Assembly (NCBI GenBank): GCA_014192425.1
Contig: BJHK01000001.1
Coordinates: 2,623-66,622 of the forward strand
Direction of reading: 5' to 3'
DNA length: 64,000 nt
From: Planctomycetia bacterium
GTDB taxonomy: Bacteria; Planctomycetota; Planctomycetia; Pirellulales; UBA1268
Shown: piece by piece, positions 13,782 to 42,285 of the stretch
How positions within the stretch are numbered: position 1 is the first letter of the stretch
How the letters are laid out: every line of letters starts with the position of its first letter
The notes under the pieces: model-generated
The model's input: the letters and a program-made list of their open reading frames with translations, nothing else
Database searches by the model: none
Told to the model about the DNA's origin: nothing
Position numbers and translations under genes: made by a program

Positions 13782-13823
13782 TCGAGGATCGCCCCTCGAT
13801 TCGCCGCATCTGCCCGCAAACGG

Positions 13824-21660: not shown

Positions 21661-21707
21661 GCCGGCCACGGCCGGAGCTGCCGCCGCAGCGGGGCCGGCC
21701 GCCCGCC

Positions 21708-22481: not shown

Positions 22482-22519
22482 CGTCGCGTGTCTCCCGAAC
22501 GAGTGGTTTCCGGTGCGGC

Positions 22520-23689: not shown

Positions 23690-23831
23690 CGACTGGCCGG
23701 GCGCGGTCGGCGAGGCTGCGACGGGCCTGACAACCAGGCCCGCGTCCTCCCGGCCGCGGAGCGTAGCGACGGCCGGGGGGGCGGCTCAACGTCGAAAACG
23801 CGAGGGCCCGTCGGCTGCCAACGCCGCTTTC

Positions 23832-24926: not shown

Positions 24927-24940
24927 GGGACGGGCTCCCC

Positions 24941-25813: not shown

Positions 25814-26721
25814 CGGGCCACCTGTCTGCGGCCGCGGACCAGGAACCGGGGCGCGACGAGGGCGGCGAGCACGACCGCCGCGGTGGCGGCCTTGAGCCAG
25901 TCCGGATCGAGGCCGGCCCGCAGCGCCGCGGCGACGAGGAGCCGGAAGCTGACGCTGCCGGCGGCCGTCGCCAGCAGGGCCCCGCCGAGCCGCACCTCGC
26001 CGACGAGGGCGTTGCCGAGAAACACGCTCGCCATCCCCCAGACCACCATGCCGATCCCCATCTGCACGTCGGTGAAGCCCTGGTACTGGGCGACGATCGC
26101 ACCGGACAGGGCCGTGAGCGCATTGGCGATCGCCAGGCCGGCCACGGTGAGCAGGCCGGTGTCGCGGCCGAGCGCCCGGGCCATCGTCGGCGTGTCGCCG
26201 CCGGCCCGCATCGCCGTCCCGAGCCGGGTGCGGAAAAACGCCCACAGGCCGACGATCGCGATGCCCACGGTCGCCGCCACGAACAGCAGCCGGGCCAGTT
26301 CGCCCGCCACCTCGGCGGAGCAGCCGAGCGTTGCGCAGGCGGGGGCGAGCAGGCTCTCCGCCCGGTCGAGCAGCGTCACGATGCCCGACAGTGGCACATT
26401 GCTGCGGCCGAGGAGGACGAGATTCACGCTGGCCAGCGTGGTCGTCATGAGGATGCCGGCGAGCAGCGGTTCGATGCCGAGGAAGGCGTGGAGCAGGGCG
26501 GTGCAGCCCCCGGCCGCGGCCCCCGCCGCCAGGGCGGCGAGCGTGGCCGCGGCGGGATCGACACCGGCGGTCAGGAGCACCGCGGCGACGACGGCGCCGA
26601 GCGTGAACGAGCCGTCGGTCGTGATGTCGGGAAACTTGAACAGCCGGTAACTCACGAACACGCCGAGGGCCACGAGCCCGAGCGCCAGGCCGAACGTCCA
26701 GGTCGAGAGCAGCGTGATCAT
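25810..26721 (-). CDS. ABC transporter permease (branched/BMP-type fold)
   Basis: ATG at 26721 (MITLLSTW), about 10 hydrophobic segments. 4-nt overlap with the STAS gene at 26718-26721. Confidence 0.85.
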   Translation of the reverse strand: MITLLSTWTFGLALGLVALGVFVSYRLFKFPDITTDGSFTLGAVVAAVLLTAGVDPAAATLAALAAGAAAGGCTALLHAFLGIEPLLAGILMTTTLASVNLVLLGRSNVPLSGIVTLLDRAESLLAPACATLGCSAEVAGELARLLFVAATVGIAIVGLWAFFRTRLGTAMRAGGDTPTMARALGRDTGLLTVAGLAIANALTALSGAIVAQYQGFTDVQMGIGMVVWGMASVFLGNALVGEVRLGGALLATAAGSVSFRLLVAAALRAGLDPDWLKAATAAVVLAALVAPRFLVRGRRQVAR

Positions 26722-27989
26722 GAGGCCCTCCCTGCGCCGACGACGAGCGGCGCGAACCAGCAGCCGCCGCGGACGAACTCCGACTCGCCGCTGCCCAGCA
26801 CCGGCTGCGGGTCGGCGACGAGGTGCACGACCGCCAGCGGCGCCGACGCCGCGAGGGTATCGATCGTGTCGATGAAGTCGAGCGGTCCGCGCCTGAGGGG
26901 ATGGAGGGGAAAGACCGCCGCGTGCAGGTGGCCGTGGATGGTGCCGGCGGCGTCCAGCGGCCGGACGAAGTCGGCCAGCGGCCCCATCGGGATGCCGCGG
27001 GCGGCCACGCCGGCGACAAGCGCCGTCCGGCGTGCGTGGACGGGTTCGCAGGAGAAGCACAGCCAGCGGGCGGCGACGTCCCGGTCGCCGGACCACGGAT
27101 GGTCGGTCGGCGTCGCCTCGGCCAGCGGACGGATCAGTTCCGCGGCCACGAGGCCGCGCACCTCGACCGCCATGACGACCGCGATGACGTCGGCGGCGGC
27201 GCTGTCGAGGAGGGGGGCGAGGAGGCTGGCAAGCCGCAGGCCGGCGCCGTCGGGCGTCTCGAAGCCGGTCCGGCCACCGGGCACGCCCTGCCAGACGAGG
27301 CCGGAGACAAAAGCCGCGTCGGCCACGAGGTCGCCGCTGCCGACGAGATAATCGACGGCGGCGAATGGCTGCGGCGGGCGGTGGAACACGGCGCCACCGA
27401 CCCCGAGCAGTTCACCGGCCCGAGCGTCGGCTTCGGCCGTGTCGCCGAGTGCGGCCAGTCCGATCGCGCAGGCGTGCCGCGGCAAGGGGCGTCGCACCAC
27501 ACCACCCTGCTGCGGGAAGCCGCGAGTCGTGTCCAGCCCGCCGACGAGTTCGGCCCGCAGCGGTCCGGCCGGGGAAGGCTCCAGGCCCACGAGGTCGAAG
27601 CCGGACACGTGCACGATCGCCGGCCCGGCCGTTCGCGGTCCACTCGTGGTCGGCGTCTCGGGTCTGCGGCCGTCCGGCTGCGGTCCCGCCATGAGGATCG
27701 GCGTCAGCCGGGTCAGGTCGAGTACCTTCCGCACGGGCTCGCTTGCCTGCACGATCAGGCAGCTGCCACCGGCCTGCTTCGCGGCCCGCTGGTTTTCGAA
27801 GAGGACGCGGATGCCCGCCGAGCTCAGGAAGGAGATGGCCGTGAAGTCGAGCTCGACGGCTTGGATGCCGCGACGCAACTCCTCCGCGACGGCCAGGCCG
27901 AGGTCGGAGGCCGATTCGGCGTCGAGCCGGCCGCCGACGGCGAGCACGACCCGGTCGTCCCGCTCATCCCGCACGATCGTGATATCCAT
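26718..27989 (-). CDS. STAS-domain (SpoIIAA-like) protein fused to an uncharacterised ~300-aa C-terminal domain
   Basis: The first ~100 aa (VLAVGGRLDAESASDL ... LDFTAISFLSSAGIRVL ... VRKVLDLTRL) match the anti-sigma-antagonist STAS pattern, including the conserved Ser. The remainder has no motif I recognise. Confidence 0.7.
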   Translation of the reverse strand: MDITIVRDERDDRVVLAVGGRLDAESASDLGLAVAEELRRGIQAVELDFTAISFLSSAGIRVLFENQRAAKQAGGSCLIVQASEPVRKVLDLTRLTPILMAGPQPDGRRPETPTTSGPRTAGPAIVHVSGFDLVGLEPSPAGPLRAELVGGLDTTRGFPQQGGVVRRPLPRHACAIGLAALGDTAEADARAGELLGVGGAVFHRPPQPFAAVDYLVGSGDLVADAAFVSGLVWQGVPGGRTGFETPDGAGLRLASLLAPLLDSAAADVIAVVMAVEVRGLVAAELIRPLAEATPTDHPWSGDRDVAARWLCFSCEPVHARRTALVAGVAARGIPMGPLADFVRPLDAAGTIHGHLHAAVFPLHPLRRGPLDFIDTIDTLAASAPLAVVHLVADPQPVLGSGESEFVRGGCWFAPLVVGAGRAS

Positions 27990-28223
27990 CGCCTTCGGCC
28001 TGCCTCGTCGTTGCGGCGCACGCGGTGCTAACCCGCCGAGAGAACCGGCATAGAGTAGCCGATGGCAGGACCGCCGCGGGGCGAATGTGCCGTGGCGCCG
28101 GTTTGCTGGTTGGGGCCGAAGAACCGCTGTATGCTTTCTGAGAGGTCACATGCTACGCGGCGAATCGCTCGTCCGCGGCCTGTCGCCCACCTCGATCGGC
28201 TGCCGGCCCGCAATTCGCCTGCC

Positions 28224-30218
28224 ATGCCCTCAGACTCCGACATCGATTCCGCTGCTGGCCCGGTCTGTCCTGGTCCCGTCTATCGCGGGCCGCTGCCCCC
28301 CGGCAATACGGTCGAGCGGGCCCCCGTGACCGTCTACGACGCCGCCGGCGAGGCGAGCCGGGCGGTGGCCCAGGAGATCGCCGACCTCGTCGCCGCGCGG
28401 GCGGCGGCGGGCCGGCAGGTGGTCCTCGGGCTGGCCACGGGGAGCACGCCCGTGGGCGTGTATCGCGAGCTCGTCCGGCTGCACCGCGAGGAAGGTTTGT
28501 CGTTCCGCAACGTCGTCACCTTCAACCTCGACGAATACTGGCCGCTATCCCCCGACGCGCCGCAGAGCTACCACCGCTTCATGCGCGAGCAGCTCTTCGA
28601 CCACATCGACATCGAACCCACCGCGGTCCACATCCCGGATGGGACCGAGTCGCGGGCGTCCCTCCTCGACGCCTGCGCCCTCTACGAGGAGCGGATTCGT
28701 GCCGCGGGCGGGATCGACCTGCAGCTGCTGGGGATCGGCCGCACCGGGCATATCGGCTTCAACGAGCCGGGCAGTCCGGTGGAGAGCCGCACCCGTCTGA
28801 TCACGCTCGACCGCGTCACGCGGGCCGACGCGGCGGGGGATTTTTCCGGCGAGCGCAACGTGCCGCGGCAGGCGATCACGATGGGGGTGGGCACGATCCT
28901 CGACGCCCGGCGGATCCTGCTCCTCGCCTTCGGCGAGCACAAGGCGCCCGTCGTGCGCCGGGCCGTCGAGCAGGCCCCCGACCTGCTCGTGACAGCGAGC
29001 GTCCTGCAGCGGCACCCCGACGCCCGCTTCGTGCTCGACCGCTCGGCGGCGTCGCGGCTGTCGCGGTTCGAGTCGCCGTGGCTGGTGGGGCCGCTGGAGG
29101 CGATGGGGCTCGGCTGGACCGAGCCGCTGACCCGCAAGGCGGTGATCTGGCTGGCCCAGCAGGTCGGCAAGCCGATCCTCAAGCTTGTGGACGAGGACTA
29201 CAACGAGCACGGCCTGCAGGACCTGCTCTCGGCGCGGGGCCGGGCCTACGACCTCAACATCGAGGTCTTTCGGGCGCTGCAGGACACGATCACCGGCTGG
29301 CCCGGCGGCCGGCCCGGAAAGCCGCGCCGGATCCGGGGACTGGCATCGGCTGCGGAGGAGTTTCCCAAGCGGATCGTCGTCTTCAGCCCGCACCCCGACG
29401 ACGACGTGATCGGCATGGGGGGAACGTTCATCCGGCTCTGCGAGCAGGGGCATGAGGTGCACGTCGCCTACCAGACGAGCGGCAGCATGGCCGTGTGGGA
29501 CGAGTCCGCCGAGCGGCATGTGGAGTTTGCCGAGGAATGGTGCCGGGCCTTCGGGATCGGCGACGCGGCCGGCACGGTCGCCGGTCACATCCGCGGCCTG
29601 CTCCGCGCCGGCGCTGGCGGCGCGCCCGACGAGGTGCGCACCGTGAAGGCGCTGATCCGGCGGACCGAGGCCCGGGCCGCCGCCCGCTACTCCGGCGTCG
29701 CGCCGGAGCGGATCCACTTTCTCGACCTTCCGTTCTACGAGACCGGTACCGTGCGCAAGCGGCCCGTCGGGGCGGAGGACGTGCGGATCGTGGCCGAACT
29801 GCTCGACCGCGTCCGGCCGCACCAGGTGTATGCCGCCGGCGACCTCGCCGACCCGCACGGCACCCATCGCGTCTGCCTCGGCATCGTGACGAAGGCGCTG
29901 GCGGAACTCGGCGACCGGCCGTGGGCCGAACGCTGCGAGGTCTGGCTGTATCGCGGTGCCTGGCAGGAGTGGGAGCCGCACGAGATCGACATGGCGGTCC
30001 CGCTGTCGCCGGACGAGGTCGAGCGGAAGCGGCTGGCGATCTTCAAGCACGAGAGTCAGAAGGATCGGTCCCTGTTCCCGGGATCCACGGATGCCCGTGA
30101 GTTCTGGCAGCGGGCCGAGGACTGCACCCGGGAAACCGCCCGCCTCTACGACACGCTGGGCCTGCCCGAGTACGAAGCGATCGAGGGCTTCGCGCTCTTG
30201 CAGCACCGCGGGTCGTAG
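28224..30218 (+). CDS. nagB: glucosamine-6-phosphate deaminase (NagB) fused to an LmbE/PIG-L-type deacetylase domain
   Basis: N-half: LGLATGSTPVGVY, TFNLDEY, LGIGRTGHIGFNEPGS. C-half: VVFSPHPDDDVIGMGG and HVAYQTSGS of the LmbE family. Start taken at the ATG at 28224. Confidence 0.85.
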   Translation: MPSDSDIDSAAGPVCPGPVYRGPLPPGNTVERAPVTVYDAAGEASRAVAQEIADLVAARAAAGRQVVLGLATGSTPVGVYRELVRLHREEGLSFRNVVTFNLDEYWPLSPDAPQSYHRFMREQLFDHIDIEPTAVHIPDGTESRASLLDACALYEERIRAAGGIDLQLLGIGRTGHIGFNEPGSPVESRTRLITLDRVTRADAAGDFSGERNVPRQAITMGVGTILDARRILLLAFGEHKAPVVRRAVEQAPDLLVTASVLQRHPDARFVLDRSAASRLSRFESPWLVGPLEAMGLGWTEPLTRKAVIWLAQQVGKPILKLVDEDYNEHGLQDLLSARGRAYDLNIEVFRALQDTITGWPGGRPGKPRRIRGLASAAEEFPKRIVVFSPHPDDDVIGMGGTFIRLCEQGHEVHVAYQTSGSMAVWDESAERHVEFAEEWCRAFGIGDAAGTVAGHIRGLLRAGAGGAPDEVRTVKALIRRTEARAAARYSGVAPERIHFLDLPFYETGTVRKRPVGAEDVRIVAELLDRVRPHQVYAAGDLADPHGTHRVCLGIVTKALAELGDRPWAERCEVWLYRGAWQEWEPHEIDMAVPLSPDEVERKRLAIFKHESQKDRSLFPGSTDAREFWQRAEDCTRETARLYDTLGLPEYEAIEGFALLQHRGS

Positions 30219-30222
30219 CGGC

Positions 30223-30240
30223 GCGGCCTCGGCCGCTTTC
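30223..30240 (+). terminator. candidate intrinsic terminator after the nagB fusion
   Basis: GCGGCC-TC-GGCCGC palindrome (30223-30236) followed by TTT. Lies between convergent genes. Confidence 0.4.
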
Positions 30241-30288
30241 AGGCTCACCCGCCGGCAAGACGGGGTGGCACGGCAGGCATGCGGTGGC

Positions 30289-32040
30289 TCATTCGGACCG
30301 CGGCTGCTTTCCGTCGTTGGCCCGCATGAGCATGTCCCAGACGCCGTCGGCCTCCGTGGATTGAAAGGACGCGTTCGGACCGCCCCCCATGTTGGGATCC
30401 CGGCCCACCTGCCTGCCTTCGGTGTCGGAGTCGGACTTCTCGCGTCGGGATACCGAGTTCTTGATGGGCCTTACCGAGCCGTCGCACATCGCCACCATCA
30501 GGATGTCGCCATGGTTGGCCTGGGAACGTATGGCGGAGCATTCCTGGGGCTTTGGCTGCGACTGGAACATGAACGTGTTGGCAAACTGCAGACCTTTCAC
30601 ATTTCTGGCATCGGACTCCCACTCGATGCCGAAACTGTGAGTCCAGGGCTTCCATTCGACATCTGTCGGACGGGGCATCGTGTTGTCGTCTGGAAATTCA
30701 TTCCAGTTGGTTCTGCCAGCCGAGTACGGATGCGGCTCAATGGCGAGCCGCACGGCACTCGACCTCACGTGTTGCGCTCCTGACGGAATCCACGAGGGGT
30801 CATCCGGATTCATAGCCACGTCGACGACCGTCCCCAGTCGCGGGCTGCTCCAGAATGCCAACCGCGCCATGTCGACGTAGCGATTTACCGGCGTTGGAAA
30901 GCTCGCACCGTCGGCATACACGACCGACGAGCAGTACCGCATCGCCTCGGCGAGGAGGATCGTGTTCGCCTGGCCATCCTTGATGTGGTCGAAGGAACGC
31001 GGTCTCCACGAGGTGATCTCGTAGCGGCCGGTGCCGAACGGACTCAGATGGGCTTGGGGTTCCACTCGTAGGGACGCTTCGGTGCTGGACACGGCCGCGA
31101 ACACGTGCGGGTTGGCGAGGTAGTTGGTTGTCGACCACTGCCGGCCGCCCAGCCATGTGAGCTTGGTGGATGACTCGATCACGCTGTTGTCACCCTTACA
31201 GACGGTGAGCGGCACGCGGATCCCTTCCTGGGCGGCCGGATAGTTTGGGAGGTTGAAATAGGGATAGCGGAAATTTTTGGCCAATCCCAGCCCCCTGTGC
31301 TGGCCGTAGCGAGGGTCAGTCGTGCCGGAGAAATACGGTTCGATCCATCGGGGCGGGGAGACCTGCTGCACTGTTCCGATCTGCGTCGCTTTTGTCCGGC
31401 GCACCGTGTAGGTCGCCCCGTTCATGCCAAAAGCCGTTTCCACGATGGTTTCGTACTTGTACGTTGGAATGGTCGTCGTGCCGCCCGGAGACATGGATCC
31501 GGCAATGAGCATCGTCCCGGAGGAGTTGACATTGCCCTCGACGAACGAATTACCCTCGATCACCGCCACCGAGGGGTTTGTATGCACGTTGAACGTCACG
31601 CCGTCGTCCAACGTCCTCTGCAGCGCCTCTGTCTTTGGGATCATGCCTTCGCCGCGGAGGGCTTCGCCCGGCACGTTCGGCCAATAGCGATACCCCAAGC
31701 AGACCTTCGCTTTGGGAAGTTTGAGGTACTCGGACTGCATCTCGATGTCGGGCAGCACATGGCCGAGCCAGCTGGTGAAGACGGGAGCCGCCCGTTGCGT
31801 CGACTCAAACGGATAGGCACCCCAGAACGGGGGCAGCGACCCGTTGCGGTTGTGAAAACTCGTGATTGCCTTGGCGAGTTGCCGCAGGTTGTTGCCACAG
31901 TCAGTGCGTCGGCCCGCGCTGCGGACCATTTGAACGGCCGGCAGCAGTATGGCCATCAGCCCGGCCAGGATCGCCACGACGACCAGGAGTTCGACGAGCG
32001 TGAACGCTCTCGTGACGCCACGCCGCTTACAGGTTCGCAT
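30289..32040 (-). CDS. DUF1559-family protein with prepilin-type N-terminal cleavage/methylation motif
   Basis: ATG at 32040: MRTCKRRGVTRAFTLVELLVVVAILAGLMAILLPAVQ...CGNNLRQLA, the planctomycete DUF1559 signature. 583 aa. Visibly lower GC than the neighbours. Confidence 0.85.
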   Translation of the reverse strand: MRTCKRRGVTRAFTLVELLVVVAILAGLMAILLPAVQMVRSAGRRTDCGNNLRQLAKAITSFHNRNGSLPPFWGAYPFESTQRAAPVFTSWLGHVLPDIEMQSEYLKLPKAKVCLGYRYWPNVPGEALRGEGMIPKTEALQRTLDDGVTFNVHTNPSVAVIEGNSFVEGNVNSSGTMLIAGSMSPGGTTTIPTYKYETIVETAFGMNGATYTVRRTKATQIGTVQQVSPPRWIEPYFSGTTDPRYGQHRGLGLAKNFRYPYFNLPNYPAAQEGIRVPLTVCKGDNSVIESSTKLTWLGGRQWSTTNYLANPHVFAAVSSTEASLRVEPQAHLSPFGTGRYEITSWRPRSFDHIKDGQANTILLAEAMRYCSSVVYADGASFPTPVNRYVDMARLAFWSSPRLGTVVDVAMNPDDPSWIPSGAQHVRSSAVRLAIEPHPYSAGRTNWNEFPDDNTMPRPTDVEWKPWTHSFGIEWESDARNVKGLQFANTFMFQSQPKPQECSAIRSQANHGDILMVAMCDGSVRPIKNSVSRREKSDSDTEGRQVGRDPNMGGGPNASFQSTEADGVWDMLMRANDGKQPRSE

Positions 32041-32159
32041 GCCAGCCCCTCCTCTAGGAATGAACTGATGCCGGGGACACCTAAGGATCTCATCGGTCGG
32101 CCGGGAGACCCGTCGCCACATCGAATTGTCCGTCTGGCCCGAGGGATCGTCAAGCGGGA

Positions 32160-32248
32160 AAACCAGCGGGCATGGGTGCCGCCTGGCCTCGCCCTCCGGG
32201 CTCGCCAGGCTTTGGCACCGTCCGGTGCCTGGTGCTGGGCGGGAATCG
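32160..32248. repeat. solo degenerate copy of the tRNA-Arg-associated repeat unit
   Basis: AACCAGCGGGC (32160-32171) plus 63 nt (32181-32243) identical to the array units at 40839-41716, same orientation. Homology runs up to the ISAs1 left end. Confidence 0.85.
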
Positions 32249-33372
32249 CAGGGCCGACGCAAACTTTACGCCGGGATTTGCAGGACTGTGAAGAGGTAGG
32301 CGGGATTCCAGCCGGCCATCCTTCGCCGCATGGCGATGCTTTCCTTGTCGTTGACCTGCTTCAGCAGGCTGATCGCGAAGCGTGTGAGCCAGGCGATATT
32401 GTCAGCCAAGAGGCGATTACGGACGCGACTTTCGTCCTCCCTGAAGGTAACGTCCAGACACCAATGCAACGTGTTCTCGATACCCCATTGTCCGCGGACG
32501 TTTGCTGCGAACTGCTTGATGCCTACGCGGAGTGAGCTGATGGAGTACCGCACGTCGTGGGTCGTCCTGTCCGCTTGAGTGCTCGTCCGGATGGCCACGC
32601 CGATCGTTCTCATGCCCTTCCAGTGTTGCTGGCCCGGCAGATCGGCAGGCACCGACATCTGACAGTAGGTGATCTCGTCCGTTCGCCCGTGTCCCTTGAC
32701 CGTCTCGGTGTGCGTGCGGAGCCCCGGGGAGGAAAAGTCATTTTCCACGTGCGCGTCGAAGCACTCCACGACAGCGTCGTGCAGCGCTTCCTGGTTGCCT
32801 TTCAGTGTCAGGACGTAATCTCCGCCGCCCTCGATGATCTTGGCGGCGATCGTTTTCTGACACCCGGCGGCGTCGATCGTGACGATCGATCCCTTGACGT
32901 CGATGGCAATGATCTCACGCTCCCCGTCCTTGCGGTTCGCGGCCAGCCGGCGGATCCAGTTCTCAAAGCAAGCCTGAAAGGCAGCCGGCTTCAAAGCCAT
33001 CAGCACGCCACCGATTGTGTCGTGTGCCGGCGCTCCATTGGGCAACTGCAAACGGTTCCTCAACCAGTCCGCGTTGCTTTCCGCCCACCGCCCGATCGCT
33101 TTGGGTCCTGCCGCGCCCGCGATGACCGCCATGATGCAGATAACCACCAGGTCGCTCAGAAGGTGCAGGCGGTTGATGTGCGATCGAGGATCCGGCAGGA
33201 CTGCAACCTCCTCCAAAATGCTTTTGACATCCATGTCCAGAACGACTTCGGTATTCCCTGGCACAGCTGTATCTCCGGCGACGGCTTCGAGGGAAACTCC
33301 TGACGAAGCCAATCATCGCCGCTACAGGCTTGCCGCGCCAGCCGAGATTGCCCAGAGTGCGCGCCGGCCCTG
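32249..33372 (-). mobile_element. ISAs1-family insertion sequence, internally deleted
   Basis: Candidate imperfect terminal inverted repeats: CAGGGCCGACGCAAAC (32249-32264) and the reverse complement of 33357-33372, CAGGGCCGGCGCGCAC (13/16 match). One transposase ORF. No target duplication seen. Confidence 0.7.
32266..33234 (-). pseudogene. ISAs1-family (H-repeat type) transposase with an in-frame internal deletion
   Basis: DPRS...HLLSDLVVICIMAVIAGA, GGDYVLTLKGNQ and RGQWGIENTLHWCLDVTFREDESR match ISAs1. IAIDVKGSIVTIDAAGCQ joins two motifs that are, from memory of family members, roughly 55-60 aa apart. The track ORF extends to 33312. Confidence 0.65.
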
Positions 33373-33386
33373 GGGCGTCACCGGTC

Positions 33387-34454
33387 CTACACTTCTACTG
33401 AAGTGTCGCCAGCGGGTGTGACCGGGTCCACGCCGACGGGGATACGTTTGATGCGCCGGGCCGCCTGCACGATGTGAACGACCTGATCAAGGACGACCGC
33501 CACCAGGATCACGGCGCCGACGATGATGAACGTCCAGTTCGGGTTCAGGCGCCACAACCGCGGAATTCCGCCGTCGTCGTCGTAACGGAGCTGGAACATG
33601 TTGATGCCGTTGTCGATGACCCGCATGATCGCCGAGCCGATGATGATGCCCAGCACCGTTCCCTCGCCGCCGCGCAGGGAGCAGCCGCCCAGCACCACGG
33701 CCGCGATCGCGTAAAGCTCGTACGCGACCCCGACCTGTTGCGACATCTGGCCGATGTACGCCGCGTAACAAACGCCCGCGATCCCCGCCAACCCCGACGA
33801 GATCACGTACGTCAACGTTTCGACCTTCTTGACGTTGATACCCGAATACTCGGCCGCGTCGCGGTTGCCGCCGATGGCGTACACATAGCGGCCGAATACC
33901 GTGAAATGCAGGACGTAGGTCCCGATACCCGCCACCATCAGGAACATCAGGAACGGATAAGGCACCAAGGGATCGCCGCTGATCTGGAGCAGACCGCCGT
34001 TGGCCAATCCCAGCAAAGGGGATCTGCCCATGCTCAGCGTTCCGCCCTCGACAATGGTCTGTGAAACGCCGCGGACCAGCAGCATGCCACCCAGCGTGAC
34101 GATGAATGGTTGCAACTTCAGGCGCGTGATCAGGAGGCCCTGCGTCAGCCCGACCAGCAGCGCGGCGGCAAGCGCCATACCGATCCCCAACCACAGCGGG
34201 TAAGCCAGGCCGCCGGTCGCATGCGACGACATCTTGGCGATGATGACGCCGGTTAGACCGACCACGGAGCCGACCGACAGGTCGATTCCGCCAGCGATGA
34301 TCACGAACCCGATGCCAATCGCGTAGATCCCCAGCATCGAAATCTGTCGCAACGTATTGATGGCGTTCGATGGCCCCAGAAAATCAGGGTTCGAGATGAA
34401 AAGCACCAGGCACATCACGACCAATGCCACGAACATGCCCAACTCGCGTCTCAT
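33387..34454 (-). CDS. sugar ABC transporter permease (RbsC-like)
   Basis: 355 aa. GIDLSVGSVVGL and typical ribose/monosaccharide permease pattern. ATGA overlap with the ATPase at 34451-34454. Confidence 0.9.
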   Translation of the reverse strand: MRRELGMFVALVVMCLVLFISNPDFLGPSNAINTLRQISMLGIYAIGIGFVIIAGGIDLSVGSVVGLTGVIIAKMSSHATGGLAYPLWLGIGMALAAALLVGLTQGLLITRLKLQPFIVTLGGMLLVRGVSQTIVEGGTLSMGRSPLLGLANGGLLQISGDPLVPYPFLMFLMVAGIGTYVLHFTVFGRYVYAIGGNRDAAEYSGINVKKVETLTYVISSGLAGIAGVCYAAYIGQMSQQVGVAYELYAIAAVVLGGCSLRGGEGTVLGIIIGSAIMRVIDNGINMFQLRYDDDGGIPRLWRLNPNWTFIIVGAVILVAVVLDQVVHIVQAARRIKRIPVGVDPVTPAGDTSVEV

Positions 34455-36010
34455 GCGGCTGCCCCTTCGGTTGTGCCCGTCATCAACGAGGCGATTCGTT
34501 CCTGTGTCAGCTCCGCGCGTGTCAGCACGCCCTTGATCTGTCGCTCGTGCATGACCACCACGCGATCACTCATGCCGATCACCTCCTCCATGTCCGAACT
34601 CACCATCAGAATCGTGATGCCGGCATCGGCCAGCGCCGCGACGTGGCGGTAGATCTCCGCCTTCGCGCCGACGTCGATCCCGCGCGTCGGCTCGTCCAGG
34701 ATCAGCACCTTGGGGCTCATCGCCAGCCATTTGCCCAGCACCACCTTCTGCTGATTGCCGCCGGACAGATTCACGACCCGCTGGCGGATGCTGGGTGTCT
34801 TGGTACGCAGCCGCGCGACTTCCGACTCGGCCACGCGCTGCTCGGTCGCGCGATCCAACAGGCCCCAACGGTTGTAGTTGGCGATGTTCGGCAGCGACGT
34901 GTTCTCGGCGACCGACATCGGCAGCACCAGGCCGTGGCGTTTGCGATCCTCGGGCGCCAGGTAGACGCCGCGATCGATGGCGTCGCGCGTGTTGCGCGGC
35001 AGAAAGGCGGCGCCGGCAAGGACCATCGAACCCCCGCGGGCGGGGGTCGCTCCGAAGATGCTCTGCATCAGCTCGGTGCGGCCCGCGCCAACCAGACCCG
35101 CGAAGCCCAGGATCTCGCCCCGGCGCGCCGTGAAGGTCACGCCCGCGGGAGCGCCGGGGACCAGCAGCTCCTTCACCTCCAAAACGGGTTCGATGCCGGT
35201 TTCGGCGGTGCCCCCCGGGACAGGCTCTTCCTCCCGTCTTGGCTTCTTGGGCGGGAAGTACTGATTCGACAGCTCGCGCCCCACCATCAGGGCCACGATC
35301 TTGTCGTGGGTCGCCCCCGCGCGCGCAAGATCCCCGATGTAGCGTCCGTCCCGCAGGACGGTGATGCGATCGGCAAGGTCCAGCACCTCCTGCATCCGGT
35401 GCGAGATGTAGATGATGCCGATCCCCTCGCCGCGCAGCTGCTGGATGATCTTGAACAGTTGTTCCGATTCGCCCGATGTCAGCGACGATGTCGGTTCGTC
35501 CATGATGATGATGCGCGCGTTGACGGACAGCGCCTTGGCGATTTCGACCATCTGCATCTGTCCGGCCGTCAAGGTCGAGACCGCGGTGGTGGGCGGTCGT
35601 TTCAGCCCCACGCGGGCCAGCAGCACCGCCGCCTTCTGGTTCATGTCCCGCCTGCCCAGCGGCCTCAGCATGCCAAGCCCGCCCGCCTGTTCGCTGCCAA
35701 GGAAGATGTTGGAGGCGATGTCCAGGTTCGGGGCCAGCATCAGCTCCTGATGGATCAGCGCGATGCCGCGGCGTTTGGCTTCGCGCACTCCCGTCAAGAC
35801 CACCGCCTGGCCGTCGATGACGATCTGTCCCTCGTCGGGCGGGTAGGCCCCGCCCAGGATCTTCATCAACGTGCTCTTGCCCGCGCCGTTTTCTCCCATC
35901 AGCGCCAATACCTCGCCCGCGGCCAGGGACAGCGACACCCGGGAAAGCGCGGTGACGCCTGGAAATCGCTTGGTGATTCCGCTCATTGCCAGCAGGGCAG
36001 GGGCCTCCAC
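34451..36010 (-). CDS. sugar ABC transporter ATP-binding protein, duplicated ATPase (RbsA/MglA-like)
   Basis: 519 aa with two nucleotide-binding halves (GENGAGKSTLMK / LSGGNQQKVVL etc.). Confidence 0.9.
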   Translation of the reverse strand: MEAPALLAMSGITKRFPGVTALSRVSLSLAAGEVLALMGENGAGKSTLMKILGGAYPPDEGQIVIDGQAVVLTGVREAKRRGIALIHQELMLAPNLDIASNIFLGSEQAGGLGMLRPLGRRDMNQKAAVLLARVGLKRPPTTAVSTLTAGQMQMVEIAKALSVNARIIIMDEPTSSLTSGESEQLFKIIQQLRGEGIGIIYISHRMQEVLDLADRITVLRDGRYIGDLARAGATHDKIVALMVGRELSNQYFPPKKPRREEEPVPGGTAETGIEPVLEVKELLVPGAPAGVTFTARRGEILGFAGLVGAGRTELMQSIFGATPARGGSMVLAGAAFLPRNTRDAIDRGVYLAPEDRKRHGLVLPMSVAENTSLPNIANYNRWGLLDRATEQRVAESEVARLRTKTPSIRQRVVNLSGGNQQKVVLGKWLAMSPKVLILDEPTRGIDVGAKAEIYRHVAALADAGITILMVSSDMEEVIGMSDRVVVMHERQIKGVLTRAELTQERIASLMTGTTEGAAA

Positions 36011-36021
36011 GGTGACTTGCC

Positions 36022-37014
36022 TTACGAGGACTTCTTCATCTCGGCCAACTTAGCCTTGAACGCCGCGACGTTCGTCTTGTCGATGACCTCGACACCGGTG
36101 TCGATGATCCGCGTGGGCGGCAGCGCCGCCTTGGCCGCGTCGCCCTTGGTCGCCAGTTCGTGCATCCACTTGGCGGACAGGTATCCGAACATGAACGGCT
36201 TTTGTACCACCGTGACCTGAATGGATCCGCTTTCGATTCCGTCCAGCGTGCCGTCGTCCTCGTCGAACACAGCCGCCAGCACCTTGCCTTTCTTGCCAAG
36301 GCCACTGAGCGCGGCGGCAATGGCCGTGCCGTTGTAGTTCCACAGCCCGACGACCATCGCCAGATCCGCGTTCGCGTTGACAATGTCCTCGACGTTCGAG
36401 CGGGCCTTCGCCCGATCCGTGTTGTCCTCGCGCTTGTCGATGATGTTGATGTTGTGCCCGGCGATCGCGTCCTCAATCCCCTTCAATCGTTGCGACGCAT
36501 TGTCGGCCGAGAACATGCCGACGAACACGGCGATCTTGCCGCCCTTGGGCAACAGCTTCACGATCTCGCCGCCCAGCGCCTTGCCCGCGTCGTAGTTGTT
36601 GGTGCCGATTTACAGCAGGCGCTTGGACTTGTCGGCGTCCGAGTCAAACGTGATCAGATTGGTCTTCGGCGCCAACCGGTCCAGCACCGGCGTTTGATCG
36701 GCGGGCGCTATCACGCTGACCGCCACCGCGTCGTAACCCTGGCTGACCAGGTTCTGCATGATCTGATTCTGATCCTCGGGCGTTCCGTTGGGGGGCATCT
36801 TGATGTCCACCTGGACCTTGGCCTCGGCCTCGTACTTGTGAATCCCGGCGGCGGCAATCTTCCAGAACTCGCTGGGGTTGTTGGTGACGAACGCCAGCTT
36901 GACCAGCTTGGCCCCGCCACCGCCTCCCGTGTTGCGGTTGCAGGCGGCGGCCGTCAGCATCGCCACGGCCAGAAACGCGAAGCAAATGGGAATCAACACT
37001 GATTTCGTTCTCAC
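36022..37014 (-). pseudogene. sugar ABC substrate-binding lipoprotein (RbsB-like) interrupted by one in-frame TAA
   Basis: GTG at 37014 preceded by GAGGAGG. Lipobox LTAAAC. Track ORFs 36610..37059 and 36022..36561 are in the same frame, separated only by TAA at 36610-36612 (..KSKRLL*IGTNNYDAGKALGGEIV..). Confidence 0.8.
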
Positions 37015-37117
37015 GGGTCGCCTCCTCGGGTTCGGGTGTCGCCAACGGCTGGGTGCCAACGGCCTGTAGTGTACGTCGGACCCACGATTCGATGTTGCCT
37101 GGTGTTACGCTTTCCTT

Positions 37118-37293
37118 GTGACCATCTACGACGAGTTGCGGGGTCTCATCCAGTCCCTCGACCGTGCGCGGGTGGATTACGCCCTGATCGGCGGGCTGGC
37201 CGTCGCCGTCTGGGGCGCACCACGCGCAAGGCACGCGCCGCCCGTCCACAGGACATCATGGACATCCAGAACCTGACGGATATCGACCGGTGA
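37118..37293 (+). pseudogene. remnant of a nucleotidyltransferase-like gene
   Basis: VTIYDELRGLIQSLDRARVDYALIGGLAVAVWGAPRA in one frame and ..RPQDIMDIQNLTDIDR in another. The N- and C-terminal motifs are brought together by a deletion and frameshift. Confidence 0.35.
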
Positions 37294-37502
37294 GCGTCGA
37301 AATGTCGTCCAGCGCGATCGAAGCGCGCCTGCGAGAGGCGAGCCGGCTCGCGGGATCCTTGCGGCCCGAGGAGCGGCTTGCCACGAAGATCGGCCTCACT
37401 CACGCCGATGTCGCCCGGCGCTTGAAGGAGGCATCCGATCTCTTGGACCTCTGTCGCGCGCTTGCCCGGGCGGGCGCCACGACCCGGGCCGTTGGGCCAT
37501 GA
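37290..37502 (+). CDS. small hypothetical protein
   Basis: 70-aa ORF overlapping the preceding remnant by 4 nt. No motif recognised. Confidence 0.25.
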   Translation: MSVEMSSSAIEARLREASRLAGSLRPEERLATKIGLTHADVARRLKEASDLLDLCRALARAGATTRAVGP

Positions 37503-37547
37503 ACCGCGCGGTTTCTTTGTCCGCGCGTTTCCGGTTCGCGCGTGGCA

Positions 37548-38129
37548 TCAACGGGAGGTCAATGTGTCGATGCGACCCAGTTCGTCGCTGCTGAAGTCCA
37601 GAGTCGCCAGCGCCGCCACGTTCTGTGCGACCTGTTCGGGGCGGGTCGCGCCCATCACCGCGGACACCATGCCCTTGTGGCGCAAGATGAAGGCCAACGC
37701 CATGTGCGCCAGCGTCTGTCCCCGGGCGCGGGCCAGATCGTGAAGGCCGCTCAGGATGCGCTTCTTTTCGGCCCTGGATTTCGATGTCACCCGGGCCGCT
37801 GCCCATTCGCGGGCCGGGCGGCTGTCGGCGGGCACGACGTACAACGCCTTGCCCTGTTCGACCAGGGTATCGAGCGCACCCATCGTTTCCTCCAACGGCG
37901 TGTGTGGATCAGGACGGTGCGAATAGAAGATGTCGAAATACGCGACGCCCGTGCGCTTCACCGACTGGTCGCAACTGGCGATGATGTACTTGCGCGAGCC
38001 CCATTTGCATCGGTCGCCGGCGAATGCATGGGGCATCTGGTCCTGGGCTTGTTCCGTCAAGCCGGGATGATACCGTTCACCGTCAGAAGGATGAGGGAAC
38101 ATGACCAACACCATCAGCGCGGAAGACAA
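37548..38129 (-). pseudogene. aldo-keto reductase (YghZ-like) fragment
   Basis: WGSRKYIIASCDQSVKRTGVAYFDIFYSHRPDPHTPLEETMGALDTLVEQGKALYV and RGQTLAHMALAFILRHKGMVSAVMGATRPEQV match AKR blocks. About 100 aa between them and the N-terminal part are missing. Confidence 0.6.
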
Positions 38130-38913
38130 AAACCTCGGTGCGAGCTCCGCTTCGGCGCCGCGATTCGACGTCGCCGGTCAGGTGGCGCTGGTCACCGGCG
38201 CCGCGCGCGGCCTGGGAAACGCGATCGCGATCGCGCTGGCACAGGCGGGCGCCGACATCGCGCTTGGCTTGCGCGACGTCAGCTCAGGCGGTGAACTGGT
38301 GGAGGCGATCAAGGGCACCGGTCGGCGCGTGTTGCCGCTGCAGATGGACGTCACGCGGCGCGAGCAGATCCAGTCCGCCGTCGCCCAGGCCGAGCGCCAT
38401 TTCGGACGCATCGACATCCTGGTGAACAACGCAGGCATCGGTCCGCCCAACCCGGCCGAAGACGTGACCGAGGAGGATTTCGATCTGACGCTGGCCGTGA
38501 ATCTGAAGGGGACGTTCTTTGTCAGTCAGGCGGTGGGGCGCGTGATGATCAAGAACCGCTTCGGAAGGATCATCAATCTCAGCTCGCAGGCCGGGTTCGT
38601 GGGTTTGCCGACGGAGTCCGTCTATTGCATGACCAAGGCCGCGATCGCGCACCTGACCAAATGCCTGGCCGTCGAATGGGGGCAACACGGCATCACCGTC
38701 AACGCGGTGGCGCCGACGTTCATCCGGACCCCGGGCACCGTGAAATGGCTGAAGGACGATGCCTTTCGAAACGACTTGCTGGCCAAGATCCCACTGGGAC
38801 GGGTCGGTGATCCCATCGACGTGTCGGGCGCGGTGGTGTTCTTGGCGTCGCCCGCGGCGGCGCTGATCACCGGCACCACGCTGATGATCGACGGTGGTTT
38901 CACGGCGCGTTGA
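38101..38913 (+). CDS. short-chain dehydrogenase/reductase (SDR) family oxidoreductase
   Basis: VTGAARGLGNAIA (TGxxxGxG), NNAG, and the S...YCMTKAA catalytic motif. 270 aa. Confidence 0.9.
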   Translation: MTNTISAEDKNLGASSASAPRFDVAGQVALVTGAARGLGNAIAIALAQAGADIALGLRDVSSGGELVEAIKGTGRRVLPLQMDVTRREQIQSAVAQAERHFGRIDILVNNAGIGPPNPAEDVTEEDFDLTLAVNLKGTFFVSQAVGRVMIKNRFGRIINLSSQAGFVGLPTESVYCMTKAAIAHLTKCLAVEWGQHGITVNAVAPTFIRTPGTVKWLKDDAFRNDLLAKIPLGRVGDPIDVSGAVVFLASPAAALITGTTLMIDGGFTAR

Positions 38914-39169
38914 GCATCAAACAAGCCGGGGGTTCGACCGGTGTTGCATGAAGGTGCTGAACATGAGCCGAGCGAAAGGCCTTCGAGGATCCTGGAGTTT
39001 CCGCATGGTGCTTCTGTGCGGCGCCGCGGTCGGCTGCAGTGCCGGTCAGACGACGCCTGGCGGTGACGCCGGGGGGTCACGGAGAGCACCAAGGCGTGTC
39101 CTGTGCGACACAGATTCTTGGGCACGGCACGGCACGGTCCTGCGTGTGCCCGCTGCGGGCGATTGGGCG

Positions 39170-39277
39170 CGCGTGAATGTTGATCACGGGCAGATCGTGG
39201 GGAGTCATCTGGACGCCATCGCGGTCGTCGTGGACCTGCAAGAGCTCACCCCATTCAGTAGGCGGGCCGCGCACCCG
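39170..39277 (-). mobile_element. isolated C-terminal fragment of an IS91-family transposase gene
   Basis: RGPPTEWGELLQVHDDRDGVQMTPHDLPVINIHA parallels the tail at 40500-40608 (ARGPPTDWGELVQAHDDREAVQVSPDELSVIDIHSL) but lies on the opposite strand. Confidence 0.5.
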
Positions 39278-39315
39278 GGACGGACCTGCAACCGGCCCAA
39301 CGGCATCATGCGGCC

Positions 39316-39573
39316 ATGCCATTCCGCCTCGCCGCCATCGCCGCCATGCTCGTTTCGGTTCCGCTTCACGCCGCCGAACCTGCCCCGCTCAAACCGATCC
39401 GCGTGATCCTCGTCGGCGACTCAACCGTCACCGACACGGCCGGATGGGGCACAGGCCTGGCGACGTTGGTCCGACCGGAAGCGACCGTCGTGAATCACGC
39501 CCGAGGCGGCGCGAGTACGAGCGCTACGCCGCCGCCGGGCTCCGCCCCGCGGTATCCGCCCGCCACGGGTTAG
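39316..39573 (+). pseudogene. N-terminal fragment of an SGNH/GDSL hydrolase (rhamnogalacturonan acetylesterase-like)
   Basis: Signal peptide then IRVILVGDSTVTDTAGWGTGL...VVNHARGGAS (blocks I and II). The frame then degenerates into Pro/Ala-rich sequence and stops. Confidence 0.5.
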
Positions 39574-39799
39574 AGGCCCGGTTTCTGAGTCGTGGCCACG
39601 GTGCTCGGCGAACGCCGGCGGCACGGGCCTGACCGGCCGCCGCCTCGGCATGCCCCCGATTCGTTTGCTCGGCCGACGAGCCTTGCGATCGGCTGGTGGC
39701 GAACCGCTCCGTCCCGCGGAGAGTGTACGGCCGTGTACTCCTGCCGTCCACCTGCCGGTCCGCCCATGGTTGCCGCGGTCACAGGGTTTCCCGCGCGAA

Positions 39800-40608
39800 G
39801 CCGACGCCGCCCGCGCGGTCTGCATGGCGTGCCGCACGGGATTCGTCGCGGCCTTCTCCTGCAAGGGCCGCGGCGTCTGCCCGTCCTGCAACGGCAGGCA
39901 CATGGCACAGACGGCGGCGCATCTCGCCGATCACGTCATCCTGCCGGTGCCCGTGCGGCAGTGGGTGATCTCCGTGCCGAAGCGATTGCGGGACATGCTG
40001 GCCGACCAACCCCGAGCCGTCGCCGCACGATCCGCTGGTTCAGGCTTGCGGGCCTGCTCGACGCTGCGGCCGCCGCCGACATGCTGGCCTGGGAGAACAG
40101 CGGATTTTCAGGAGACGCGAGTGTCAGGATCGCGCTCAATAGACCGCGACGTGCCGAGCTATTTTCAGAGTCTGGAACACCTGCTGCGGTATTGCGCCCG
40201 CCCGCCCTTCGCGCTCGAGCGACTCGAATCAAAAGCCCCGCTCGCACGACACGTCGCGAATCGCCTGGGCGAAACTCCTGGCCCGGGTGGGTGAGGAGTT
40301 TCCCCTCGAGTGCCCAGCGTGCGGCGGCGACATCCGGCTGATCGCGTTCAGACTGCTTTCCGAGTGCGAAACCATCCCTGGCCTTCGCACTCTTGGCAAC
40401 CTCCGGTTGCTGCGGACTTCCTGTCCGCGAGCCGGGGCCGATCCGGAAGATTCTCACACACCTCGGCGAACCACTCGAGCCACCACCAGTCTCGCCGGCC
40501 CGGGGACCGCCCACCGACTGGGGCGAGCTTGTCCAGGCTCATGACGACCGCGAAGCGGTTCAGGTGTCGCCCGACGAGCTGTCCGTGATCGACATCCACA
40601 GCCTCTAA
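39800..40608 (+). mobile_element. IS91-family transposase gene remnant (several deletions and frameshifts)
   Basis: CMACRTGFVAAFSCKGRGVCPSCNGRHM...LPVPVRQWVISVPKRLR (zinc-binding N-terminus), WENSGFSGDASVRI, LEHLLRYCARPPFALERL, PLECPACGGDIRLIAF and ILTHLGEPLEPPPVSPARGPP are spread over three frames in ~0.8 kb instead of ~1.2 kb. Confidence 0.6.
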
Positions 40609-40838
40609 GCCGTGCCGGACGCGAGGTCAAACCAAAGCCCCCAGGCGGCCGAACTCGGACAGCCTCCGCACTGACGCCAGAAAAATGCCACTCCAGAGGG
40701 GAGGGCAGCCGTTCCGGGAGCAGCTGATCAGGTGCCGGAAAACGCGGCACCAGCCTCACCAGCCGCCCATCGGCTCGGAAATGCCTGTCGACATGGTTGC
40801 GGAAGTGCCATTGACCGGACTACCCTTCTTAAAACAAG

Positions 40839-41716
40839 TGCGCCCGGGTGGACTCGAACCAGCGGGCTATCTTCACGCCCGGCCTCGCCCTCCGGGCTCG
40901 CCAGGCTTTGGCACCGTCCGGTGCCTGGTGCTGGGCGGGCATCGTGCCCACCAGTCTGACGCAGTACGCCCGGGTGGACTCGAACCAGCGGGCTATCTTC
41001 ACGCCCGGCCTCGCCCTCCGGGCTCGCCAGGCTTGGCACCGTCCGGTGCCTGGTGCTGGGCGGGCATCGTGCCCGCCAGTCTGACGCAGTACGCCCGGGT
41101 GGACTCGAACCAGCGGGCTATCTTCACGCCCGGCCTCGCCCTCCGGGCTCGCCAGGCTTTGGCACCGTCCGGTGCCTGGTGCTGGGCGGGCATCGTGCCC
41201 ACCAGTCTGACGCAGTACGCCCGGGTGGACTCGAACCAGCGGGCTATCTTCACGCCCGGCCTCGCCCTCCGGGCTCGCCAGGCTTGGCACCGTCCGGTGC
41301 CTGGTGCTGGGCGGGCATCGTGCCCGCCAGTCTGACGCAGTACGCCCGGGTGGACTCGAACCAGCGGGCTATCTTCACGCCCGGCCTCGCCCTCCGGGCT
41401 CGCCAGGCTTTGGCACCGTCCGGTGCCTGGTGCTGGGCGGGCATCGTGCCCACCAGTCTGACGCAGTACGCCCGGGTGGACTCGAACCAGCGGGCTATCT
41501 TCACGCCCGGCCTCGCCCTCCGGGCTCGCCAGGCTTGGCACCGTCCGGTGCCTGGTGCTGGGCGGGCATCGTGCCCGCCAGTCTGACGCAGTACGCCCGG
41601 CTGGACTCGAACCAGCGGGCTATCTTCACGCCTGGCCTCGCCCTCCGGGCTCGCCAGGCTTGGCACCGTCCGGTGCCTGGTGCTGGGCGGGCATCGTGCC
41701 CACCAGTCTGACGCAG
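40839..41716 (-). repeat. tandem array of seven 125/126-bp units, each = tRNA-Arg 3' 26 nt + 99-100-nt hairpin-rich module
   Basis: Unit boundaries 40839, 40965, 41090, 41216, 41341, 41467, 41592, ending at 41716. Strictly alternating A (126 bp) and B (125 bp) variants. See findings. Confidence 0.95.
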
Positions 41717-41790
41717 TACGCCCGGCTGGACTCGAACCAGCGACCCTGGGATTAGAAATCCCATGCTCTATCCGACTGAGCTACGGGCGC
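41717..41790 (-). tRNA. tRNA-Arg (anticodon TCT)
   Basis: 74 nt folded by hand: acceptor GCGCCCG/CGGGCGT (G1-U72 wobble), D arm GCTC-AGTCGGATA-GAGC, anticodon arm TGGGA-TTTCTAA-TCCCA, T arm GCTGG-TTCGAGT-CCAGC, discriminator A. No encoded CCA. Confidence 0.9.
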
Positions 41791-41956
41791 GAAGCGGGAC
41801 GCATCCCCCGGCCAAAGGCGACGGGGTGCTCCACCCTCCAAATACTACCACGCGACCACGATGGGCGGGCCCGCTGGGCCGCTTCACGGCCGCCTTGATC
41901 GCGGTCAGCGCGAGCAGCGCCGCCTTCATGAGCGGGATAAGATCGGGCATCTTCAT
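41768..41956 (-). CDS. possible small ORF with strong Shine-Dalgarno that reads into the tRNA-Arg gene
   Basis: AAGGAGGT 4 nt upstream of the ATG at 41956. Product MKMPDLIPLMKAALLALTAIKAAVK... The frame only closes 23 nt inside the tRNA gene. Confidence 0.25.
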   Translation of the reverse strand: MKMPDLIPLMKAALLALTAIKAAVKRPSGPAHRGRVVVFGGWSTPSPLAGGCVPLRARSSVG

Positions 41957-42103
41957 CACGACCTCCTTGGCATGGTTGGGCAGGCACGTCCTGCCCGGCA
42001 CGCCCGCACGATATACAAGGCGTTTCGGACCGGCTTTCACGCCCGCGGCCGAGCGCGCGGCCGGAACCGAAATCACCCTTCGCCGCTCGCGGAGACCAGC
42101 GCC

Positions 42104-42244
42104 ATGCCAACGCGATACTGGATCATCCTCGCCCTCAGCCTGCTCGCCGGGATCGCGGTCCTGTTCTCGCGGCCCACCGGCCGCAAGCCGCGGTCCAGCG
42201 TTCCGTGGCGCGGGCAGGTCAAGCCGCCCCCGCCGCCGCCGTGA
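42104..42244 (+). CDS. possible 46-aa single-pass membrane peptide
   Basis: MPTRYWIILALSLLAGIAVLFSRP... followed by a Pro-rich tail. GGAGA about 9 nt upstream. Confidence 0.3.
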   Translation: MPTRYWIILALSLLAGIAVLFSRPTGRKPRSSVPWRGQVKPPPPPP

Positions 42245-42285
42245 CCGGGGCGCCTGGCGCGTTCGCCGCGGCTGAGCGTTGGGTC

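Follow-up and report, generated by a model that had tools for sequence, protein, structure and literature searches.

We analysed a 64,000-nucleotide stretch of DNA from an uncultured, high-GC freshwater planctomycete (Planctomycetia bacterium, assembly GCA_014192425.1, contig BJHK01000001.1, positions 2,623 to 66,622 of the forward strand; hereafter the window), in which a tandem array abuts the 3' end of a tRNA-Arg(UCU) gene and an inserted block of 8.6 kb (32249-40837) lies between this array and a solo copy of its unit, U0. An earlier reading of the sequence (the original prediction) had taken the solo copy for a degenerate eighth unit, and the DNA in between for either a composite insertion that split an older array or a degraded island flanked by direct repeats. 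The features on either side of the block are, from left to right:

30289..32040, minus strand: DUF1559 / prepilin-type N-terminal gene, the native left flank (Pfam SBP_bac_10 and N_methyl; GC 0.62, GC at third codon positions, GC3, 0.78)
32161..32171, plus strand: AACCAGCGGGC, native post-trailer sequence
32181..32248, plus strand: U0, the solo unit, read here as a truncated ancestral tRNA-Arg trailer (exact 59-mer common to units 1, 3 and 5)
40838..41715, plus strand: tandem array of seven 125/126-bp units (from TRF, the sequence and the alleles of relatives)
41716..41790, minus strand: tRNA-Arg(UCU) gene (TCT; ARAGORN; Rfam tRNA, 70.9 bits), its 3' end facing the array, to the left

Each array unit consists of a 27-nt copy of the tRNA 3' end (T, GTACGCCCGGnTGGACTCGAACCAGCG), a 12-nt joint (J, GGCTATCTTCAC) and a segment of approximately 86 nt (U). 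TRF placed the array at 40837-41742 with 7.2 copies of period 125 (a period of 251 scored better), and unit 1 opens with a variant T, GTGC replacing the GTAC of the remaining units. The solo copy lies in the same orientation as the array, as predicted, and is not a chance similarity, since exact copies of its 59-mer (32185-32243) lie at 40881, 41132 and 41383, in units 1, 3 and 5, where shuffled sequences lead one to expect none. No further copies of the unit were found elsewhere in the window. The longer stretch of 63 nt at 32181-32243 had been described as identical to the array units; it is indeed similar to them, but as one exact 63-mer it occurs only once, being a mosaic of the GCCTGG of unit 7 and the TTT of units 1, 3 and 5. 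Homology to the units reaches 32248 with one mismatch (aatcg vs catcg), and at 32249 the inverted repeat of an ISAs1-family element begins, just as the original prediction had it. U0 thereby ends about 22 nt before its tRNA-proximal end, interrupted by this element.

The left flank carries a NagB/PIG-L fusion gene, a protein 99% identical to whose product is encoded on 24 metagenome contigs, and we compared the window to these contigs by BLAST. Window positions 21698-32247 are collinear with positions 3474-14014 of one of them (L001) at 96.7% identity; the match resumes at L001 13947 with window positions 41629-42248, a single U joining the DUF1559 gene to the tRNA. The same layout of DUF1559 gene, one U and tRNA, with no insert, is found in seven contigs of approximately 96.7% identity (L001-L004, L007, L010 and L011), while two others (L005 and L012) carry two units, again without an insert. 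The empty site that a comparison with relatives had been proposed to reveal therefore exists: the 8.6-kb block is absent there and the site is intact, as in the case of a genomic island. We consider it very probable that 32249-40837 is a clade-specific insertion into a pre-existing trailer repeat. Because L005 and L012 carry two units in the absence of the insert, the copy number of the repeat has varied independently of the insertion, and these two-unit alleles speak against the flanking repeats being a product of the insertion, or attachment (att) sites. Elsewhere synteny was uninformative: the nearest named MAGs belong to the Pirellulales, in the nearest GTDB genomes the flanking protein was only 74-77% identical and no tRNA-Arg lay nearby, and L118-L121 yielded nothing informative.

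Since U stands as the native trailer in a sister species, the solo unit is the original trailer of tRNA-Arg(UCU), now truncated, and not a degenerate eighth unit; indeed, it is collinear with the single trailer of relatives. The sister-species homolog of U (in L109) is approximately 80% identical over about 90 nt and stands behind a displaced 45-nt tRNA half. The adjacent AACCAGCGGGC, originally counted as part of the repeat copy, is native post-trailer sequence instead, relatives carrying AACAGCGGGC as its counterpart. On the tRNA-sense strand it reads GCCCGCTGGTT, in which CGCTGGTT is shared with the T arm of the tRNA; CGCTGGTT is probably the microhomology at which T plus U was first duplicated. 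A repeat that brackets an island can thus be a pre-existing tRNA trailer, and not an att site created by integration.

The unit might alternatively have been one of many dispersed copies, which would have undone the original prediction. We rejected a dispersed-repeat family, as an exact 30-mer of U had no match in 185,579 species genomes and two in metagenome contigs, both at this locus. No conserved RNA structure of U could be shown: folding in the tRNA sense gives z = -3.0 for the unit but z = -0.1 for its sister-species homolog, and the helices are not conserved. An Rfam search of the unit for known RNA families returned the tRNA only.

Among strains the array comprises one unit in seven contigs, two units in two contigs and approximately seven in the window; with head-to-tail copies whose number differs among strains, it is a variable-number tandem repeat. 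It resembles repeats of this kind that arise by microhomology duplication in its head-to-tail units of 125 bp, present in 1, 2 or about 7 copies, and in a joint that coincides with an identity of 8-11 nt (CGCTGGTT) between the T arm and the post-trailer sequence. It differs from them in that each unit embeds a tRNA 3' end, and a plain duplication leaves part of J unexplained: a patch of 9 nt has six positions unlike the native block, though the sequence on either side of it is identical. How many of these nearly identical 125-bp units there are, and in what order, is insecure, as the window probably comes from a metagenome-assembled genome (MAG) built from short reads. Three of its proteins have exact counterparts in 'Planctomycetia bacterium' LBMAG47 (GDX94369, GDX94372 and GDX94376, on a contig of 329 kb), and the LBMAGs were assembled with metaSPAdes from MiSeq 2x300 reads (10.1101/655167); the unit count is insecure because of these short reads. 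Tandem arrays in short-read MAGs need caution in general.

The tRNA gene itself is polymorphic. Two very different T-arm alleles occur within one species, in flanks that are approximately 97% identical: GCTGGTTCGAGTCCAGC in the window, L012 and the sister-species contigs L109 and L115, and GTGGGTTCGACCCCCAC in L001-4, L005, L007, L010 and L011. L005 has the GCTGGTTCGAGTCCAGC form in an internal fragment and the GTGGGTTCGACCCCCAC form in the gene (positions 14040-14065 and 14165-14190; the corresponding positions are 41716-41745 in the window, 14039-14065 in L001 and 800-825 in L012). To judge from sequence, this pair of alleles looks like the footprint of a past att exchange. T-arm alleles can hence swap among members of one species, which is probably a trace left by earlier integrations.

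What was inserted is a mixture of defective and intact genes. The original prediction had listed a deleted ISAs1, an ABC transporter operon with a nonsense codon, gene remnants, an intact short-chain dehydrogenase and debris of IS91, and Pfam searches bore this out:

32249..33372, minus strand: ISAs1-family element, 1,124 bp, probably internally deleted (Pfam DDE_Tnp_1_assoc and a partial DDE_Tnp_1, profile positions 75-197)
33387..34454, minus strand: ABC transporter permease (Pfam BPD_transp_2; GC3 0.83)
34451..36010, minus strand: sugar ABC transporter ATPase with two ABC domains (Pfam ABC_tran twice; NCBI name sugar ABC transporter ATP-binding protein)
36022..37014, minus strand: periplasmic sugar-binding protein pseudogene (Pfam Peripla_BP_4 on both halves)
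37548..38036, minus strand: aldo-keto reductase (AKR) remnant, 162 amino acids (Pfam Aldo_ket_red, partial), shortened in every contig that carries it
38101..38913, plus strand: short-chain dehydrogenase (SDR), intact (Pfam adh_short_C2; NCBI name 2-deoxy-D-gluconate 3-dehydrogenase)
39173..39280, minus strand: inverted fragment of an IS91-family transposase C-terminus, forming a 108-nt inverted repeat, 74% complementary, with 40492-40599
39316..39573, plus strand: open reading frame (ORF) of 85 amino acids with no Pfam match, called as an 85-amino-acid gene in L013 and other contigs
39650..40608, plus strand: IS91-family transposase relic (Pfam Zn_Tnp_IS91, E = 1.3e-9), its frame broken and its C-terminal end kept
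40609..40837, plus strand: non-coding tail of 229 bp 3' of the IS91 relic, on the expected oriIS side

At the left end, a DDE_Tnp_1_assoc domain and a partial DDE domain (DDE_Tnp_1) between terminal inverted repeats (32249-32265, CAGGGCCGACGCAAACT, and 33356-33372; 14 of 17 positions matching) place the first element in the ISAs1 family. Members of this family make target-site duplications of 8-10 bp. None was found around this copy, whose flanks gggaatcg and gggcgtca agree at five of eight positions. No other insertion site of this copy was found either, the exact protein occurring at this locus only. The left boundary is thus the inverted repeat of ISAs1 inside the trailer, with no copy of the tRNA, which is at odds with a tRNA-derived att site at that end; a repeat of the tRNA 3' end stands only at the right boundary, as the 27-nt T at 40838-40864. 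At the right end the IS91-family relic, homologs of which are widespread in Planctomycetota, retains the zinc-binding domain, while no Y2_Tnp (HUH catalytic) domain was found in it, so that only one of the two domains of an IS91 transposase is present. The relic appears inactive now, and any activity must lie in the past or have been supplied in trans. The predicted lack of an integrase also stands: no integrase gene was detected among ORFs of at least 70 amino acids (Pfam) or in six-frame scans of 37000-37600, 38900-39700 and 40290-40840. As to a plasmid origin, only short matches to ABC ATPases were found.

The stop codon in the binding-protein gene is due to a single C-to-A change at 36610, which turns Tyr135 (TAC) into TAA in a sequence otherwise identical to the intact 330-amino-acid gene of a contig discussed below (L014). 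The intact binding-protein gene is also present at the same tRNA locus in L022, so that the inactivation at 36610 is very recent; the decay of the block as a whole is recent too, to judge from this one base and from indels in L022. The product of the 85-amino-acid ORF has, by eye, a signal peptide and a GDS motif, and it may resemble the N-terminus of an SGNH hydrolase, a likeness that is unconfirmed.

The composition of the block agrees in part with a foreign origin. The original prediction had noted a visibly lower GC content, and the block indeed has a GC of 0.646 against 0.713-0.715 in the flanks, with a GC3 of 0.81-0.87 for the cargo against 0.90-0.95 for native genes. The argument is weakened, however, because the drop begins at approximately 30250, inside the DUF1559 gene, which every relative, like the sister species, has beside the tRNA. 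As this low-GC gene is native in every relative, the GC profile misplaces the left boundary; the block is lower than native genes as would be expected of an island, but the native DUF1559 gene is lower still. With its GC of 0.62 and GC3 of 0.78 this gene is the lowest in the region, below the foreign cargo, and its sister-species ortholog is also low (0.57). Low GC beside a tRNA gene is hence no proof of foreign origin.

The same insertion is found at the same site, with at least 99.4% identity, in the independent assemblies L013/L021, L022 and L025. L022 comes from a different study and has, beside the intact binding protein, two small deletions; the right junction of the block is identical in the independent assemblies L013/L021 and L026. 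A further contig, L014, carries window positions 34133-39442 at 99.87% identity and the IS91 tail (39864-40821) at 100%, away from any tRNA and with a different right flank, formed by PSCyt1/DUF1501 genes whose GC3 of 0.84-0.85 matches that of the cargo. The last 17 nt up to the G at the junction (40822-40838, ACCCTTCTTAAAACAAG) are absent from the L014 copy. In L014, two copies of the IS91 tail (5304-6261 and 11101-11198; window counterpart 39864-40821) flank the PSCyt1/DUF1501 genes, and both start at 39865/6, in the zinc-finger coding region, right after an internal CAAG, which hints at an IS91-type cleavage specificity. In L026, a different upstream IS91 sequence is fused to the same tail from 40451 onwards. 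The nearest outside relative of the SDR gene is 87% identical at the nucleotide level and lies in DNA of 64.7% GC. Judged from these matches, the cargo seems to have come from, or to be also resident in, a planctomycete of lower GC, with the IS91 tail at its right.

We favour, on balance, an explanation in which a two-unit allele received, in its distal unit, an insertion mediated by insertion sequences (IS), and a deletion associated with ISAs1 accompanied or followed it; the IS91 route within it is put forward more tentatively, as possible rather than probable. In the species, the block of 27-nt tRNA end, U and 12-nt J is a tandem repeat of variable copy number. An 8.6-kb piece from a lower-GC planctomycete would have entered the distal unit, that farthest from the tRNA, with its left edge at approximately position 69 of U and its right edge where the next T begins, about 22 nt of U being lost. 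An IS91-type rolling-circle element would have brought its upstream neighbours (the SDR gene, the AKR remnant and the ABC operon) by one-ended transposition, and an event associated with ISAs1 would then have settled the left junction and deleted the bases that are now absent. The remaining unit would have been amplified afterwards; the cargo is now decaying. The sequences themselves show the insertion with its empty site and the older repeat, the IS at both boundaries with no integrase, and a second context for the same cargo; we infer the order of these events, the one-ended IS91 mechanism and the two-unit allele before the insertion.

Elements of the IS91 family start their rolling circle at oriIS, downstream of the transposase gene, and insert beside a CTTG/GTTC-type tetranucleotide without target duplication; in one-ended transposition, failed termination carries along DNA beyond the terIS end (PMC13181058, PMC5737581). 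At our locus the relic reads toward the junction, its stop codon about 230 bp away, no target sequence is duplicated, and all of the cargo is on the terIS side; L014 shares the left cargo and the tail but not the right flank. It is because of this fixed tail, the cargo only upstream, the lack of a duplication and the different right flanks of the window and L014 that one-ended IS91 transposition is suggested. The likeness to IS91/ISCR elements (PMC13181058, PMC5737581) thus extends to an element at one end with its transposase toward the junction and cargo upstream, to the missing duplication and to the same tail beside different DNA. The right junction reads AAAACAAG|TGCG (AAAACAAG|TGCGCCCGGG), with CAAG or GTGC as candidate tetranucleotides. 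As the original prediction had suggested, CAAG may plausibly mark an IS91 end at the right boundary, though the match to L014 ends at 40821.

Several points nevertheless weigh against the explanation that we favour. The empty-site contigs all belong to a sister clade (96.7%) and none to the clade of the window itself (at least 99%). CAAG lies on the inserted side and GTGC on the target side, where other units have GTAC, so that, in difference from the known IS91/ISCR systems, no clean canonical CTTG/GTTC target is seen; the copy lacks the catalytic Y2 domain, its oriIS end was not located, and the far end is another IS instead of a surrogate termination site. Other copies did not help to define the IS91 end, since the homologs in the protein database are short fragments, and outside the same scaffold the exact ORF was not found. 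The homology to L014 ceases 17 nt before the junction, and L014 itself may be chimeric or rearranged. The different IS families of the two ends, the lack of a duplication and the loss of 22 nt call for at least two events. At most a few nucleotides separate the right junction from the precise 3' end of a tRNA fragment, a position that an att-type junction would give likewise. Finally, the order and number of units at the 59-nt repeats rest on how the assembler resolved them.

A junction so close to a tRNA terminus raises the first rival, an integrase-borne island that entered a T copy of the array, later IS91 and ISAs1 events having erased the integrase, the distal att site and 22 nt of U. In E. 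coli, argU and argW carry tRNA-gene-associated islands, and the proposal that tRNA-Arg(UCU) is an island target finds support in the sister species, where this gene is a genuine integration hotspot. There the AI-2E transporter is 89% identical and three contigs (L109, L110 and L112) keep the same gene order; the intact tRNA is followed by a terminator-like hairpin, an islet, a copy of the tRNA 3' half, the U homolog and the DUF1559 gene. The islet is flanked by 45-nt repeats of the tRNA 3' half that are 84% identical and start in the anticodon loop. This layout is the textbook signature left when DNA integrates into a tRNA gene.

The islet itself (L109/L110, 10422-11523) measures 1,057 bp and contains DUF4160 and DUF2442 genes, with a GC of 0.60 and without an integrase. 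In L111 (10391-15136), another contig of the sister species, the tRNA sequence breaks off past the anticodon loop (…TTTCTAAT|GCGAACGG), so that ARAGORN detects no tRNA gene there; next come a GIY-YIG gene and four further ORFs. Either the tRNA is split by a different insert or the contig is chimeric.

This proven hotspot, with its repeat-flanked islet and the L111 insert that starts in the anticodon loop, lends the integrase-borne island some weight, as do the two very different T-arm alleles of one species, a mark of att exchange, the right junction at a tRNA-fragment 3' terminus with its private GTGC variant, and the 17 nt between the IS91 tail and this fragment, which lie outside the L014 copy of IS91. 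The window resembles tRNA-associated islands in having foreign, deviant DNA 3' of a rare-codon tRNA-Arg, absent in relatives and with tRNA repeats nearby, and in the repeat-flanked islet found at this tRNA in the sister species. It departs from them, however, in that no integrase or remnant of one turned up in ORFs or six-frame scans, no tRNA fragment stands at the left, both ends are IS sequences and the repeats predate the insertion; the same cargo with its IS91 tail, moreover, lies away from any tRNA in L014. We therefore regard an integrase-borne island as unlikely, and IS-mediated insertion as the better account.

Less likely again is that the solo arrangement is partly an artefact of assembly, in which the cargo would lie inside the array, or in a circle or tandem duplicate, and the assembler of the short reads took one of several paths through the 59-nt repeat. 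L123 and the scaffold L026 read T-J-U(1-69)-ISAs1 in place of the native flank, the window proteins match LBMAG47 with its metaSPAdes assembly of MiSeq 2x300 reads, and a re-assembly of data apparently from the same series of Lake Biwa samples is interrupted within unit 1. Yet two studies provide three other assemblies with the junction of native flank, U0 and ISAs1 (L013/L021 and L022), the link in L026 is a scaffold join across a gap of Ns, and the support from L123 amounts to 32 nt at a contig end. We judge an artefact of this kind improbable.

The two aberrant sequences (L026, 3250-4141, and L123, 1420-1511) come from other samples of apparently the same lake series (MEHR18-4 scaffolds, SAMD BioSample IDs). 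L026 has the order IS91 tail, T'', J, U, T', J, U', ISAs1, in which the cargo is circularly permuted, but as proof of a circle it was rejected, the join being a run of 100 Ns. The arrangement of L026 and L123 could reflect a wrong assembly path at the repeat, or else a circle or tandem duplicate that really exists and arose by recombination between U0 and an array unit. Live repeats of this kind, by which recombination between U0 and an array unit would excise or tandemly duplicate the integrase-less 8.6 kb together with one or two units, would fit both sequences, and we give this only a slim chance. If true, an array of tRNA ends and trailers would be a recombination platform with spare attachment sites, on which IS-bounded cargo moves without a recombinase of its own.

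The remaining rival, that homologous recombination imported the ISAs1-cargo-IS91 segment, perhaps with a donor tRNA-Arg end, and replaced the resident interval at the tRNA locus, would account for IS ends of different families with no target duplication at either, for a variant first T (C72) that could be donor-derived and for a cargo 99.9-100% identical in two contexts, but no allele with only a resident ISAs1 or only IS91 was found at the locus, and the exact ISAs1 protein occurs only at this junction; we consider this rival improbable.

The originally proposed older array split by a composite insertion comes close to the data, in so far as an older repeat was split by an 8.6-kb block, but the block is no true composite transposon: it shares with composite transposons a cargo between two insertion sequences, and differs in that these are of different families (ISAs1 on the left, IS91 on the right, with no second copy of either in the window), both defective and without target duplication. 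No new mechanism is demonstrated by the IS-mediated insertion that we favour; what we describe is a strain-specific, IS-bounded insertion at a tRNA hotspot. It is a natural example of change at the 3' flank of a tRNA gene, for which lake metagenomes yielded filled, empty, one-unit, two-unit and multi-unit alleles.

Variation is also seen beyond this flank. In L010 (10345-11393) the sequence 5' of the tRNA is unlike that of every other contig from the edge of the gene onwards and holds an HSDR_N_2-type ORF; the 5' side of the tRNA may be variable too, or L010 may be chimeric. A second variable spot lies approximately 10 kb to the left of the locus, where window positions 19500-21700 were compared with L001-L007 and the contigs differ, both from the window and among themselves, upstream of about 21698 (an RHS fragment, a PIN/VapB pair and small ORFs). 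Farther to the right, window positions 62567-62711 form a perfect tandem repeat of 6.0 copies of a 24-bp unit (GGCCGGAGAGGACAGGCATCGAGG), with 100% identity among the copies.

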